Origin: Octopus vulgaris
Taxonomy: Eukaryota
DNA: 64,000 nt
Direction of reading: 5' to 3'
Assembly (NCBI GenBank): GCA_951406725.2
Contig: OX597823.1
Span: forward strand, 88,412,001-88,476,000
Shown here piece after piece: positions 29,929 through 60,164 of the stretch. Under the pieces are notes generated by a model. That model was not told the origin of the DNA, searched no databases, and saw only the letters and a program-made list of their open reading frames with translations. Position numbers and translations under genes: made by a program. Positions within the stretch are counted from its first letter, which is position 1. Every line of letters starts with the position of its first letter.

Positions 29929-30950
29929 AAATCTCTCGTAGATGTGCTTGCATCCGAAAGGGAGAAATAGTTGGATTTAGAAGATACTTTATGTTTCTTA
30001 CTCCAGTTTGATTATTGTAGAATGATTACGAGTGTATTTTGGGGAACCCAAAAATGAGACACCAAAGATTGAAACGAAAACTGTTTTGAGTTTTGTCCCT
30101 GTGGGTTTATGTTGAATGTCACTACCCATAACCAAATAAATCATGCATAAGGGCCATTCTTATTTAATATGACTATCGACCCAGGTGATAGACACCTATC
30201 CAGGATGACTCACCCAAGTTAACACGCTGTTATGCTTGGATATCTGCAAAAGGTGTGGCAATATTTCAAAAAGTTGGTTCCTGGCAGTTAAGTTACCATA
30301 TTTAAGTTACACTTAAGTTACCATATTTCTATTAAAACATTCTGCTTTTGTCTCAACAAATTTCATAAAATAAAGAAGAATTTGCTGAAATAACATTTTC
30401 AATAATGTGATCATCTTGTGCCATTGCAACGCGCACGTGATACGTTAACGTTGTCCAATAACTTTGTACGTTAACGAATAGCGTTTTCAGCTACGTTCCT
30501 GCTTTATGAACAATCTTTTGTAAAACGGCCAAAACAGATATAATTCTTGACACAACACCTTACACTACACACTTTTGGAAATCTATTGTCAAAACGCTCA
30601 AGTATATTCCTATATTTTGAAATACAATTAAATTCTAATATATTCTAATTTATTCTATGTGCATGTTCAACTTCCTTCTTTCATTCACTCCTTCACATAT
30701 TTCGATTAATAACAATTTTTATATATATATATATATATATATATATATATATATATATATATATATATATATATATATTGTGTGTGTGTGTGTGTGTGTG
30801 TGTATATACACAATAACAGTAATATATATATATATATATATATATATATATATATATATGTATGTATGTATGTATATATACACAATAACAGTAATATATA
30901 TATATATATATATATATATATACTATATATGTTACATTACTCGGTAGTCA

Positions 30951-31013
30951 AGATAAAACTCTGAGTTTCAGATGCCGAAGTGGAAATCCACAACACCATC
31001 TCTTCGGTTATCT
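30951..31013 (-). ncRNA. Type I hammerhead ribozyme variant (family b), mirror copy
   Basis: Reverse complement of 31073-31135. Confidence 0.6.
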
Positions 31014-31072
31014 GGCTATTTGAAAACGTTATGAAAAAATACCGTATTTTTTCATAACGTTTTCAAATAGCC

Positions 31073-31135
31073 AGATAACCGAAGAGATGGTGTTGTGGAT
31101 TTCCACTTCGGCATCTGAAACTCAGAGTTTTATCT
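31073..31135 (+). ncRNA. Type I hammerhead ribozyme variant (family b)
   Basis: agataa-CCGAAGA-gatg...catc-t-GAAA-ctc-a-gag-TT-ttatct: stems I-III present, U4C core variant, GUU cleavage triplet. Confidence 0.6.
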
Positions 31136-31355
31136 TGACTACCGAGTAATGTAACATATTGTATAGATAAATTTCCTCTATTTACATAATATTGAGGTCT
31201 CTTTCTTTCTTTTGTTATCTTACCGTTTTATCAATATATATATATATATATATATATATATATATATATGTAGGTCCCGGGTTGATTCGGGGCTAACCAC
31301 AGTAAATAAGGTACTCAATACATAGTAGAGTAAAATTAATTTATTATATAGAAGG

Positions 31356-31406
31356 AGCTTCTACAGGACTAGAACTGTTTCATTCAAGAGAAATCTTCAG
31401 GAAGCT
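31356..31406 (-). ncRNA. Type I hammerhead ribozyme (family a)
   Basis: Reverse complement of 38401-38451. Confidence 0.88.
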
Positions 31407-33480
31407 AGTTAACAAGAATTGTATTGGCATTTATACATTTAGGCAGGTTTAAAGGGGTGTTGGTGGGGGACTTTTTGGGGGTAGGCATAGCGCAAAATAT
31501 CATACTTGGGGGAGTGGTCAAGGAGTCAGTGTTAAATTAGATAGAAGAATAAATAAAAAATTTAAAAATATATAAAAAAATATATAAAAATATATATAAA
31601 AAAAGGGAATAGAGTTTTAGGTAAATAAGGAGATTCTCACTTATACCTATGCACATATGTATACATATATACACACACATACAAACATATATACATATAC
31701 ATACACACATACGTACACACACACATATACATATATATACACTTACACATACATATACATATCTACACATACACATATATGTATACATACACACACTCAC
31801 ATGCATACACGTATACACACATGTATATATACACACACGACCACACATACATATACACACAGAAAAGTATATATACACATACACACACATACTCACATAC
31901 ACGCATACACACACATATCCACACACACATATGCACACACAGCACACTAGTCCCTATATACACATATATACACATACACACACATATACACACACATACA
32001 TATACATACATATATATATATATATATATATATATATATATATACATATGTGTACCTATGCATACCTACACATACACACATATATATACACATACAAATA
32101 CAGACCCATTCCCTAATTTTAATTTTATTATCTTCATTTATTACTTTTGTTATCTTTGATCGCTGGTCACAAACATCTTGGCTATGACAGCCAGTCCATT
32201 TATCTGTCTACTGGAAAACAAGCACTCATTTACTCACGCACACTCTTTAGCACGTACACTCACTCATTCGTACACTCATACACATACACGCACGCACGCG
32301 TTATATTCATACATACATACATCTACATACATTCACGTATATACACATACGTACGCGTACCTACAGATTCATGTCTACACTCTTAGAAGGCTAGTCTATA
32401 CATATACACCAATGAATATAAATACACACACATACATATACACCTACATACAAATACATACATGTATATATATATATATACATATACATACATATTCACA
32501 TATATATACACACATATATATATACATATATATATATATATATACACATACATACATATACACATTTACATATATATATATACATATACACACACATACA
32601 CATACATACATATACACACATACACATACATACGTATACATACATACATACATCCATACATACATACATTTATACACATACACACACCCACACGTATACA
32701 TATACGTACATATATATACGCACATGCATACACATACAAATACATACACATACGCATATACATATACATACATACACATACACACACACGTGCCTCCTTA
32801 TATTCATACTTACATGCATACTCAAAAAATAAATAATAAATATTAAGTATATGTACGTGCAGTTACCTATTATATAGCCGGATACATACAATATAAACTT
32901 ACACACACACACATATATATATATATATATATATATATATATATATACACACATATATATACATATACATATATACACATATATATACACACACATATAC
33001 ACATATATATATATATATACATACTTACACACATGTACAAATACATACACACATAGATAACTCTACGTACCTACATATACATAAACACACGAGCGTACAC
33101 GTATATGTACATATACACATACACATACACACGCATATATATACATACATACATACACATACACACATATATACACACACACATACATATATATACATAC
33201 ATATATATATATATATATATATATATACATATATACATATACACACACATATACATGTGTGCAAACATACATACATACTCATACACGCACACACACTTAC
33301 ATATACATATATACACACACTTACACACATATATATACATACACATATACATACATACATACATACATATATGCATACATACACACACACATATATATAT
33401 ATACATACATACACATACACATACCTATACATATATATACACACATATATACACATGCACATACTTATATCTCTACATAC

Positions 33481-57656: not shown

Positions 57657-57884
57657 ACGGCGGCGAGCTGCCAGAAACGTTAGCACGCCGGTCGAAATGC
57701 GTAGCCGTATTTAGTCTGTCGTTACGTTCCGAGTTCAAATTCCGCCGAGGTCGACTTTGCCTTTAATCCTTTCAGGGTCGATAAATTAAGTACCAGTTAC
57801 GCACTGGGGTCGATCTAATCGACTTTTCCCTTTGTCCTTGTTTGTCCCCTCTGTGTTTAGCCCCTAGTGGGTAGTAAAGAAATA
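57657..57884 (+). mobile_element. SINE family A, young full-length copy with TSD-like flanks
   Basis: Near-consensus body; tataattattagtaga repeated at 57642-57657 and 57885-57900. Confidence 0.9.
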
Positions 57885-58004
57885 TATAATTATTAGTAGA
57901 TGCAGAATTAAATGGGTCGTTCAGAAGTTCACTTCGCAAATACGCACTTGAGGTTCAACCCCAGAAGGCCACAAGTAAAATAGTGAATGAAAATAACGGT
58001 TCTG

Positions 58005-58205
58005 AATTAAGGCCAACAATTTTAAGGAAAGAGGGTTTAGTCATTACCAACGATCACCGTTCATGGCTGATATTTAATCTTTTTGATCCCAAAAAGATGA
58101 AAGGAAAAGCTGGTCTCGGAACAATTTAAATACAGTGTGTAAGGAGCCGGAAAAAATACGGCTAAGCAATTTTGACTGGATTGCTAACGATGCTGCCAGC
58201 AGGTT
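58005..58205 (-). mobile_element. Decayed SINE family A variant
   Basis: aaggccaacaatttt..gatgaaagg..gctaagca..gctaacgatgctgccagc. Confidence 0.55.
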
Positions 58206-58244
58206 TCTTAAAGTGTATTCATAAAATATGTTCATATTGAAACG

Positions 58245-58341
58245 GGTAGTAGTAGTAGTAGTAGTAGTAGTAGTAGTAGTAGTAGTAGTAGTAGCAGCAG
58301 CAGCAGCAGCAGCAGCAGTAGCAGTAGTAGTAGTAGTAGTA
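58245..58341. repeat. (TAG)n(CAG)n repeat
   Basis: Directly visible; gives the spurious poly-Val/Ala ORF. Confidence 0.95.
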
Positions 58342-59921
58342 GGTGGTGATGATGGCGCTTATAGTTGCATTCCTGCTGCTGCAAGCATCAGAGGCGTTGC
58401 CGGTGCACCAAAGGTTGTAGAAGAATGTGATATTAACAACGCCGTTAGAAGTAGCTAAACAATAAAATACAGAAGTCGCTGAATGATAGTATGATAAACT
58501 TGAGGGAATTTTGAAGCGGGATTTTTGATGTATCTGCCTGTGCTATATTTGAAAGCAATACACGATACGCAAAAATTATTTCTGAATATCGCAAGTTTAT
58601 ATCTTTGTGGAAAATCACGTCTACGTTCGTTTTAAAGGGGATTTTTTATGTGTGTTGCATCAAGTTAACTTCAGGATTTTGTATCACTTGGACGGTGAAG
58701 ATCAACATGAATCTCAAATATGACTTGTGTTTACTGTTTTGTAACTAATAATGACGTTAGATATTACTTTTAAATATCACTTGTACAGATTTTAGTATAA
58801 TCTTTAAACACGGAGCCTCTCCCTTGTTGCTTTAGGAGGTTCCAGCCCTCGCAAAGGAATCCCATAGCTCTTTGAAGGTTGATAAACAAATTTCTAATGT
58901 TGTAGATGAATATGTTGAAAACATAGTAAATGAAAAAACATGTGTAAATATGATGCAAAAAGAACTTACTACCAACGTACGTTTCTCGTTTGAAAAACAT
59001 GAGATTTTTCCCCAGTATATGCTGTTTGTCTTAATAGTAATGCAATTCTTATCTAAAAATAATTAAATCTAGAGGCTAAACAAAAATTTTCTCAGCATGA
59101 AAACTATCTATCTCAGGGCAGCTATTTTTGAACATACAAGATTTTCTAAATATATATCATTTAGAGATACATATTTATAACATTTCTAGATATATATCTT
59201 TATTCTATAAATATTAGATATTTTGAAGTATAGTAAGTAATATGAATGCTTTATCTTATGATATCATACATCTGGTATCATATTTGATGTATCAAAGGAT
59301 ATAATATATAGGATATCATATATCTTTGGTGATAGAGTGCAGTAAATCACTTTGAAATGAAATGAAAAATACACATCATAATACTTGTTGATCTATTATT
59401 TTTACTGAAGGCTCAGATCCGGTAGCGTTAAAAATGAAATTCCTTCGATAACGAGAAAAGGAAATGAATATCAGAAGAGATGGTTGTATCACAAAAAAAC
59501 TAGGTTTAACATTTATCTCTATAAGCCTAAGTTTGTAAACGGCATTGATATTGCTTTGGTATTCCTTTTTTTCTTTCCAAAAACATTTGCATTAAATATC
59601 TCGTGGTATATTCAACCAAGTCATGAATACTTTTTTCATCAAATGATGTTTTATCAATCGCATTATTCATCATATATTGTTGATATTCTTCAGTTTTTAT
59701 CTTTTACTAGTTACGGTCATTGGACTGCGGCCACTCTGAATAGCTTAATCGAAAAAAATCGACCCCAGTAATTATTTTAATGTGTTATACTTATTCTGTC
59801 GAACACATTAACCGAACCGCCAGGTTACAGGGACAGCAAGAGTGTAACGCCTGTTTTCAAGCAGTTCTGAGACAAATGCAATGACACACACACAAACACA
59901 TACGTATATATATATATATAT

Positions 59922-60164
59922 ATTTTATTTTATAGAAGGAGCTTCTACAGGACTAGAACTGTTTCATTCAAAAGAAATCATCAGGAAGCTAGGTGACAAG
60001 AGTAGTTTTGGCATTTATACATTTAGGCAGGTTTAAAGGGGTGGTGGTGGGGGACTTTTTGGGGGTAGGCATGGCGCAAACTATCATTCTTAGGGGAGTG
60101 GTCAAACGCTATGTATTGAGTACCTTATTTACTGTGGTTAACCCCGACTCAACCCGGGACCTAC
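59922..60164. mobile_element. Short remnant of the 31-38 kb PLE family: inverted pLTR piece plus 3' tail
   Basis: 59931-60105 matches 31347-31521; 60109-60164 is the reverse complement of 31270-31325. Confidence 0.88.
59940..59990 (-). ncRNA. Type I hammerhead ribozyme (family a)
   Basis: Minus strand agcttc-CTGATGA-t-ttc-tttt-gaa-t-GAAA-cag-ttctagtc-ctg-TA-gaagct. Confidence 0.9.

Follow-up and report, generated by a model that had tools for sequence, protein, structure and literature searches.

Penelope, Naiad and Adineta Penelope-like elements (PLEs) carry a head-to-head inverted, 5'-truncated copy, often with a tail at one end only, and opposite-strand hammerhead pairs 100-700 bp apart were noted earlier in PLEs (accessible parts of PMC8557442, PMC3846280, PMC2377424 and PMC4209133). 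In the same parts the tail is called "optional", and the explanations offered are resolution by the endonuclease or self-priming on an antisense transcript. Inverted pLTRs with one tail and (TA)n targeting by the Hydra clade are described in the accessible text of PMC8557442. For Poseidon PAc of Anolis, both strands were nicked and extended in vitro, two internal start sites delimited the tail, with no difference seen between the strands in their use, and ribozyme cleavage was not required (PMC11167929, accessible parts). As far as their accessible text goes, PMC8557442 and PMC11167929 leave the origin of inverted, tailed PLE insertions to future work.

The window, which is the whole analysed stretch of 64,000 nucleotides of Octopus vulgaris DNA, contains three insertions whose divergent arms had been placed inside (TA)n by an earlier note. 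All three were found there in head-to-head arrangement (Table 1), and they are members of two Hydra-type PLE families, A and B, with thousands of copies each. Exact probes gave 4500 genome matches for family A and 2381 for family B and none when reversed, so the window insertions are not due to chance. A DNA search using the family-B arm had returned no candidates before a tight pattern gave the 2381 matches. In the search behind the copy 2 S2 end, the 852 forward matches were usable, and minus-strand matches were listed repeatedly. Positions are numbered from the predicted hammerhead cut, +1 being the first base beyond it; S1 denotes the tail end and S2 the nearer, tail-less AT-rich end. The positional samples comprised 41 family-A insertions from the first 58 exact-probe matches listed and 22 family-B insertions from the first 32 listed.

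Table 1. Coordinates in the window of the three insertions and their parts
Feature	Position	Strand	Remark
Copy 1 (family B) S2 arm, -89 to +30	30927..31044	-	predicted hammerhead cut between 30957 and 30956
Copy 1 (family B) S1 arm, -86 to +107, with predicted hammerhead and tail	31043..31236	+	predicted cut after 31129
(TA)n run common to copies 1 and 2	31237..31269	.	
Copy 2 (family A) S1 arm, about 2.2 kb	31266/31270..33482	-	tail 31270-31338; predicted hammerhead cut between 31362 and 31361
Copy 2 inversion-junction linker, 4 nt, non-palindromic	33483..33486	.	
Copy 2 S2 arm, ending at +23	33487..38468	+	holds 5'-truncated RT-EN ORF
Copy 2 5'-truncated Hydra-type PLE ORF	33487..35154	+	555 codons, first 158 absent
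Family-A 3'UTR / pLTR in copy 2	35155..38400	+	microsatellite-rich
TATA-box-like motif, copy 2	38372..38378	+	putative function; 29 nt upstream of probable transcript start
Predicted type I hammerhead, copy 2	38401..38451	+	predicted cut after 38445
Probable capped transcript start, copy 2 (-45)	38401	+	
Copy 2 S2 end (+23)	38446..38468	+	AT-rich motif leading into (TA)n
Copy 3 (family A variant) S2 arm, -161 to +22	59924..60105	-	predicted cut between 59946 and 59945
Copy 3 S1 arm, tail alone (+36 to +96)	60108..60168	+	no overlap with S2 arm

The ends have 2-4 nt in common with the TA run, as in the S1 arms of copy 1 (final 2 nt) and copy 3 (final 4 nt), and exact end coordinates are therefore ambiguous. 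The three copies had been read as three outcomes of one process. Non-overlapping arms, separated by a 2-nt linker at the inversion junction, were confirmed in copy 3, as was kb-scale overlap in copy 2, where the outer 192 nt of both arms are identical at 191/192 positions and the S1 arm has a 3'UTR rich in microsatellites. The "perfect" fold-back of copy 1 proved near-perfect and inexact, its arms starting at -89 and -86.

Both families have a pLTR-type organisation with tandem or partial-tandem units, an inverted copy and a tail. The unit is 5743 bp long in family A (locus L209), with a microsatellite-filled 3'UTR, and 2579 bp in family B (L099); most family-A copies are fold-backs of about 200 bp. 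The pair C1:13118278/13124287 was rejected as a tandem, being a duplicated arm together with its flank. A retrozyme- or MITE-like amplified unit was set aside as the source of the short fold-backs, in which junctions differ between copies and several subfamilies occur in place of one fixed unit.

A single ORF (708 aa in family B) carries reverse transcriptase and GIY-YIG endonuclease motifs recognised by eye (YRDD/YKDD, YIG/YVG, R, H, E, N), the family-B copy that was read having YKDD; the family-A ORF in the window has RT (YRDD), a CxCX5C linker and, at its C terminus, an endonuclease of the GIY-YIG type. Neither window ORF gave a Pfam match. Pairwise comparison of the family-A and family-B proteins yielded 40% identity over 521 aa. 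N-terminal motifs are RWK and DKT in B and an RWR variant and DKT in A, and both proteins have CxCX5C, CxxC and CxH and lack CCHH, the endonuclease motif halves having no paired cysteines between them. By these motifs, both families appear to belong to the Hydra clade, which the accessible text of PMC8557442 characterises by the same C-terminal GIY-YIG, RWK/RWR, DKT, CxCX5C, CxxC and CxH, absence of CCHH and (TA)n targets, and also by a hammerhead motif, which is a predicted one here. Hydra elements are generally shorter than 3 kb in that description, a tendency and not a strict criterion, with which B (2.58 kb) agrees and A (5.74 kb; about 5.7 kb) does not. Other differences from that source are the tail, 30-40 bp in PLEs there and about 67-77 nt here, and the abundance, with thousands of copies here that are chiefly tiny fold-backs.

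Genome-wide, 112 two-armed insertions could be read at both ends, and every one of them paired a tail end with a tail-less end. These included all 31 in the family-A positional sample (two-sided binomial p 9e-10 against 50:50) and all 16 in the family-B sample, a further 13 pairs in family B and 17 in long family-A copies; 35 of 38 tail-anchored loci were also S1+S2. Single-armed copies (7/41 in A, 4/22 in B) were chiefly S1, and three more in A and two more in B had no clear arm assignment. S1 lies at +96 in A and +107 in B, and S2 lies 15-40 nt past the predicted cut. Tail-less ends of family A fall at about +14 to +27 with a mode of +23, and those of family B (n=35) at +40 (21), +35/36 (13) and +31 (1); the tail-less end of L031 at about +35 counts against the fixed-end reading. 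Outer ends adjoin TA runs in the loci displayed, and both S1 and S2 were seen again as loose TA ends in contigs from other sequencing runs.

Arm ends and orientations thus follow two fixed ends in both families and are not scattered at random, as the check proposed in the earlier note had asked. Its estimate of about 23 nt for the family-A internal end is borne out by copy 2 (+23), copy 3 (+22) and the genome-wide mode; its 30 nt for family B describes copy 1 and is the short extreme of a family ending mostly at +36 or +40. The note's idea that the tail arm was primed at the RNA 3' end is not supported: tandem copies continue beyond the tail into the 5'UTR and reach the ATG, which lies at about +138 in A and +212 in B. 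These copies, and jump junctions reaching as far as +395, extend past the tail end, so S1 too is an internal site. Both S1 and S2 are therefore internal to the unit, whose 3' end does not coincide with the tail end. Two fixed ends, one-of-each pairing and the two-armed architecture hold genome-wide in two families.

The hammerhead core and stem I are present by motif inspection and in the predicted fold, the folding z-scores (0.08, -1.38 and -0.28) being not significant; the 150 listed of 243 Rfam matches included no hammerhead family, only microRNA-like chance matches. Nearly all arms run through the uncut site, 5' ends at the predicted cut are rare, and three jump junctions are located there. 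The defined internal site that the note placed beside the ribozyme is upheld, S2 being fixed, internal and near the cut; the predicted hammerhead is a landmark rather than the cause.

Family-A arms pile up at the 5' edge of the hammerhead. The positional sample has 27 short insertions, of which 12 extend to exactly -45 and 23 go no further upstream than that. Single arms adjoining TA at -45 have a G directly before A(-45) in 36 of 94 cases, whereas controls placed at about -25 to -33 gave 1 to 4 of 53, and a TATA motif lies 29 nt upstream of -45. The boundary likely marks run-off at a capped transcript start. The pile-up in family B is broader (-57 to -67), with no TATA motif at -30. Starts with G+(-45) gave 503 matches, many of them ambiguous in that the G may derive from the other arm, and non-A+(+1) starts gave 20, several of which are point changes; the two patterns differ, starts preceded by A being left out of the +1 count. 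On these counts hammerhead-cut RNA was rejected as the usual template. A splice-acceptor reading of the boundary, suggested by an AG that borders the hammerhead in both families and likewise in D. virilis Penelope (PMC4209133, accessible parts), is not favoured: copies retain upstream bases, and a constant exon was not seen.

Of the 23 family-A insertions with an arm longer than 160 nt, 7 have an S2 arm that exceeds the S1 arm on the upstream side by over 100 nt. In four insertions the arms do not overlap, the tail arm stopping at +36, +44, +46 or +7. Because of these S2-longer and non-overlapping arms, neither arm can have been made by copying the other, and the geometry needs two separately templated arms. 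A prediction under which the S1 arm could never exceed the S2 arm in length was false by arm measurements, the S1 arm often being longer, and 4 of 13 long family-B copies have near-equal arms (within about 20 nt). Arm-to-arm mismatch within versus between insertions was 0.3% versus 1.9% in long A, 0.8 versus 2.5% in short A and 0.5 versus 1.2% in B, and none of 10000 permutations gave within-insertion mismatch as low. Variants are common to both arms of an insertion, an identity to which gene conversion or polishing of the assembly could have contributed. Mini-tandems show template jumps from one RNA to another.

These observations are probably best explained by twin target-primed reverse transcription, in which both nicked (TA)n strands prime the same uncut sense RNA at two internal sites. 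The endonuclease would nick both target strands, and the TA primers would pair with short AU motifs at S2 (+23 in A, +36/40 in B) and S1 (+96 in A, +107 in B). Both cDNAs would then stop, and their 3' ends would be joined through 0-4 nt of microhomology or a few added bases. An S1 cDNA stopping before S2 would leave non-overlapping arms (copy 3), one displacing the S2 cDNA would give overlapping arms (copy 2), and cDNAs stopping together would give a fold-back (copy 1); a longer S1 arm on one RNA would need displacement past a stopped S2 cDNA. In a transcript starting at the hammerhead's 5' edge, S1 and S2 would also lie near the 5' end, and priming there would run off the capped end, producing the promoterless fold-backs of about 200 bp that are the commonest family-A product. 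The earlier suggestion that both target strands prime reverse transcription is thereby retained, with the two fixed ends, the one-of-each pairing and the separately templated arms in its favour; the RNA 3' end as one of the sites is given up.

In L1 twin priming, the second target strand primes internally on the same RNA, giving an inversion with junction microhomology, and extra G occurs at capped 5' ends. L1 first primes at the poly(A) end and then at variable sites, in a minority of copies and mostly with non-overlapping arms, whereas in the octopus families neither site varies and both are internal, insertions normally have two arms, and overlaps of kb length are common. Poseidon PAc resembles the octopus families, as read here, in its AT-rich target, two internal start sites, use of both strands and independence from hammerhead cleavage. 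Its start sites, however, fall within the ORF, where they occupy an AC-rich stem-loop described as non-homologous to the target, and those proposed here are 5'UTR AU motifs matching the TA primer (PMC11167929, accessible parts). The same parts concern Poseidon, not Hydra, and draw no link from the start sites to the opposite ends of a single inverted insertion.

The arms might instead be templated by two separate RNAs if the protein is a dimer whose subunits each take one RNA and keep to different start sites. Such a dimer is predicted in the accessible text of PMC11167929, arm extents could then differ freely in both directions as observed, and RNA-to-RNA jumps do occur in the mini-tandems. 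This reading is unlikely: the arms of one insertion have common variants though several subfamilies coexist (RNAs from the same donor would fit), and an extra rule would be needed for one-of-each pairing and for tail arms that stop just past S2. Single priming at S1 followed by snap-back, with the cDNA copying itself until the endonuclease ends or cuts it where S2 resembles TA, would make the tail a resolution product; the accessible parts of PMC8557442 ascribe the tail to EN-mediated resolution. It would account for one tail per insertion, common variants and near-equal arms, and some junctions are compatible with a 3-nt loop; snap-back may lie behind some equal-arm copies. It cannot yield S2 arms further upstream than the S1 arm (copy 2, L138, L209, L101, L107) or non-overlapping arms (copy 3, L110, L117, L157), and mirror-image short junctions were found in both orientations. 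As a general rule snap-back is contradicted by the S2-longer copies, and as the overall explanation it is quite improbable.

Perfect palindromic centres in L142, L152 and L174 recall the hypothesis, based on palindromic inversion junctions in Adineta Penelope elements, of self-priming on an antisense transcript (PMC3846280, accessible parts). Most junctions are non-palindromic, however, some insertions have arms that do not overlap, the extra G at -45 is in keeping with a sense RNA that is capped, and both outer ends show AU/TA microhomology to the target, as target priming predicts, making this origin of the head-to-head structure very unlikely. That the inversions are assembly artefacts, from fold-back chimeric reads or collapsed repeats, is hardly credible. 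The inversion junctions are read from the assembly, and the L191 array is error-rich in units close to its centre, but the two families and their several subfamilies show arms that end at different element positions, in different flanks and with junctions that vary; contigs from other runs contain both end positions again, and the same architecture is published for other PLEs.

The general two-armed design is less new than the earlier note implied and is in part published. Compared with the accessible Penelope, Naiad and Adineta papers, what distinguishes the octopus families is the strict pairing and a geometry that points to twin priming. Strict S1+S2 pairing, the run-off class and a statement of twin priming for PLEs were all absent from the literature searched, most subscription papers lying outside it.

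It is conceivable, at somewhat less than even chances, that EN+ PLEs normally integrate by twin priming at two fixed sites inside the RNA, writing both strands inward without separate second-strand priming, and that, with both sites situated shortly downstream of the capped start of the transcript, most events run off the 5' end to give promoterless hairpins of about 200 bp, a built-in brake on spread. These young, high-copy families form an in-genome record that separates published hypotheses, and the exact sites can be named for direct test (A -45, +23 and +96; B +36/40 and +107). If true, the mechanism would describe a retroelement writing from both DNA strands at defined RNA positions. It would explain the long-puzzling shape of PLE insertions and a large class of tiny hairpin insertions that could be mistaken for microRNA genes, as the microRNA-like Rfam matches among the 150 listed illustrate.

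The window was placed at G000:C10:88412001-88476000 (contig C10 of assembly G000, 2.8 Gb), and the three insertions that the earlier note had described were all present there. Families A and B are, as assigned by motif, Hydra-type Penelope-like elements (PLEs), and their protein features are those that the accessible part of PMC8557442 gives for the Hydra clade. Natural tandem copies at loci fetched from the assembly (L-numbers) gave units of 5743 bp for family A (L209) and 2579 bp for family B (L099). The family-B protein has 708 aa; the family-A ORF in the window, which lacks the first 158 codons, is 40% identical to it across 521 aa and had no match in a Pfam search. 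Positions are counted from +1, the first base 3' of the predicted hammerhead ribozyme (HHR) cut. The HHRs were predicted by eye; HHR stem I was seen in the predicted folds, folding z-scores were not significant, and the 150 matches listed of 243 in an Rfam search included no hammerhead family.

Coordinates of the insertions and of other features in the window and in fetched loci
Feature	Location	Description
Copy 1, family B	window 30927-31234	minus arm -89..+30; plus arm -86..+107
Copy 2, family A	window 31270-38468	2.2-kb minus arm with tail; 4-nt linker; 5.0-kb plus arm, end +23
Copy 3, family A	window 59922-60164	minus arm -161..+22; plus arm +36..+96, tail only
Predicted HHR core, family B	window 31078-31129	C replaces usual U4; extra base at stem II
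Third RT + GIY-YIG-type ORF	window 20805-22856 (+)	683 aa between stops; apparently a further PLE family; window self-comparison showed no inverted arm
Inverted duplication	window 19581-20175	595 bp, 90% alike, TA microsatellites at centre; no relation to families A and B
Dispersed SINE-like repeat, ~200 bp	window 5536-5725, 28674-29090, 44537-44764, 57659-57895	
Clustered insertions	window 31237-31269; L191:9080-9350; G000:C1 about 72537800	either family, each in TA flank of earlier insertion
LINE-type frame, L140	G000:C1 about 13128400-13131500	open, 1005 aa, endonuclease + RT; nested in family-A insertion
Mini-unit array, L191	L191:820-9080 (G000:C8, about 91475100-91483400)	271-bp family-A units with TATA motif, hammerhead, tail and ORF start; about 5 on one strand, 24 on opposite
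Jump junctions exactly at predicted HHR cut	L193:2019-2309; L195:2800; L199:7317	L193 repeat unit, about 125 bp, begins at +1

Arms of both families end at two fixed sites, a tail end (S1; +96 in family A, +107 in family B) and a tail-less end just past the predicted HHR cut (S2). A family-A probe ending at +22 had 4500 exact matches; 2326 matches ran on into the tail, and 852 forward-strand matches went into TA; the family-B probe had 2381 matches. Tail-less ends in the fetched loci lay at about +14..+27 in family A (about 96 ends, with +23 the commonest form in 52) and at +40 (21/35), +35/36 (13/35) and +31 (1/35) in family B. AT/TA bases were common to element end and target run at every S1 and S2 end. 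The tail end was read through in only 60 places, roughly half within a single array. The earlier note had taken the tail end for the RNA's or element's 3' end; in tandem units the sequence runs beyond it and reaches the ATG near +138 (A) and +212 (B), which makes S1 internal. Contigs of other sequencing runs (two DNA-labelled, one of uncertain kind) also contained loose TA ends, at +20..+25 and at +96; these contigs list no joints, and the inversions are therefore known here from the assembly alone.

The two sites were paired one to one, as tallied by hand from script tables. In samples drawn by position, the first 58 of the 4500 family-A matches represented 41 insertions: 31 two-armed with both ends readable, all 31 S1+S2; seven single-armed (5 S1, 2 S2); two with one outer end lost; and one with a duplicated arm. 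The first 32 family-B matches represented 22 insertions, including 16 pairs (S1+S2 in 16/16), four single-armed and two unresolved. When 38 loci were chosen by the tail alone, 35 carried an inverted arm without a tail, which in one case stopped at about +35, two were single-armed and one ran into an assembly gap. With 17 further long family-A pairs and 13 of family B, exactly one tail was found in 112/112 pooled two-armed insertions, and none had two tails or no tail. The 29-unit head-to-head array L191, whose template could have been a small circular or multimeric RNA, likewise ends in S1 on one side and S2 on the other.

Short family-A fold-backs are a fourth outcome, additional to the three that the earlier note had listed. 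Among the 41 sampled family-A insertions 27 were short; 12 of these ended exactly at the 5' edge of HHR stem I (-45), and 23 stayed within this limit. Their junctions differ and cover several subfamilies, and they are therefore separate events; origin from one amplified unit was rejected on the same grounds. Of 94 loci whose single arm adjoins TA at that edge (drawn from the first 100 of 121 matches listed), 36 had a G ahead of A(-45), compared with 1 to 4 among 53 loci at positions that served as controls; in L1 work, an extra G arises through copying of the cap. There is a TATA motif 29 nt upstream of -45, and mini-tandems show run-off at -45, extra bases and a jump to a different part of the element. 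The family-A transcript, judged from these sequence features, probably starts, capped, at -45, and priming at 5'UTR copies of S1 and S2 would then run off after 68 and 141 nt.

A TATA motif at -30 was absent in family B, whose 5' pile-up was wider (-57..-67). Family-B arm 5' ends also group at -347..-399, within the endonuclease coding region (L083, L091, L086, L102, L104), with mirrored extents in L083 and L091 (-387/-398); this is possibly another RNA end. Arm 5' ends at the predicted HHR cut were rare, and the junctions there hint that cleaved RNA occasionally serves as template.

In both arms the sense 3' end adjoins the target, which is the arrangement that target priming requires. Snap-back and antisense self-priming (accessible part of PMC3846280) would also produce head-to-head inverted copies. 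The S1 arm frequently exceeds the S2 arm in length, and arms of equal length occur in some long copies; both observations count against a simple picture in which the two nicked (TA)n strands prime reverse transcription, one per site. In 7/23 family-A insertions (arm >160 nt; junctions of long copies approximate where inside microsatellites) and in family-B copies at L101, L105, L107 and L110, the S2 arm extended upstream beyond the S1 arm by >100 nt, and four insertions had non-overlapping arms. S1 cDNA cannot template sequence that it has not reached, and S2 cDNA is without the tail; both arms must therefore be RNA-templated in these cases, which argues against either rival as the general route. 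Arm-to-arm similarity was far higher within insertions than between them (0/10000 permutations in all three sets compared, which numbered 22, 18 and 13), indicating a single RNA or a single donor locus as source, and gene conversion or polishing could contribute in part. Twin priming on one RNA is, in our judgment, quite likely.

The accessible part of PMC8557442 describes (TA)n as the target of Hydra elements and inverted head-to-head copies frequently tailed at one end only, and that of PMC4209133 describes HHR pairs on opposite strands, 100-700 bp apart. In the literature covered, which took in few subscription papers, neither strict one-of-each pairing, nor twin priming as its cause, nor the run-off fold-back class was found. 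According to the accessible part of PMC11167929, a Poseidon protein nicks and extends both strands in vitro, with two internal start sites that delimit the tail and are used alike on both strands, and HHR cleavage is unnecessary; inverted insertions lie outside the scope of that study. By extension, we infer that one site would be used per strand per event. Families A and B would work in the manner of L1 twin priming, but differ from it in having two fixed internal sites, as the rule.
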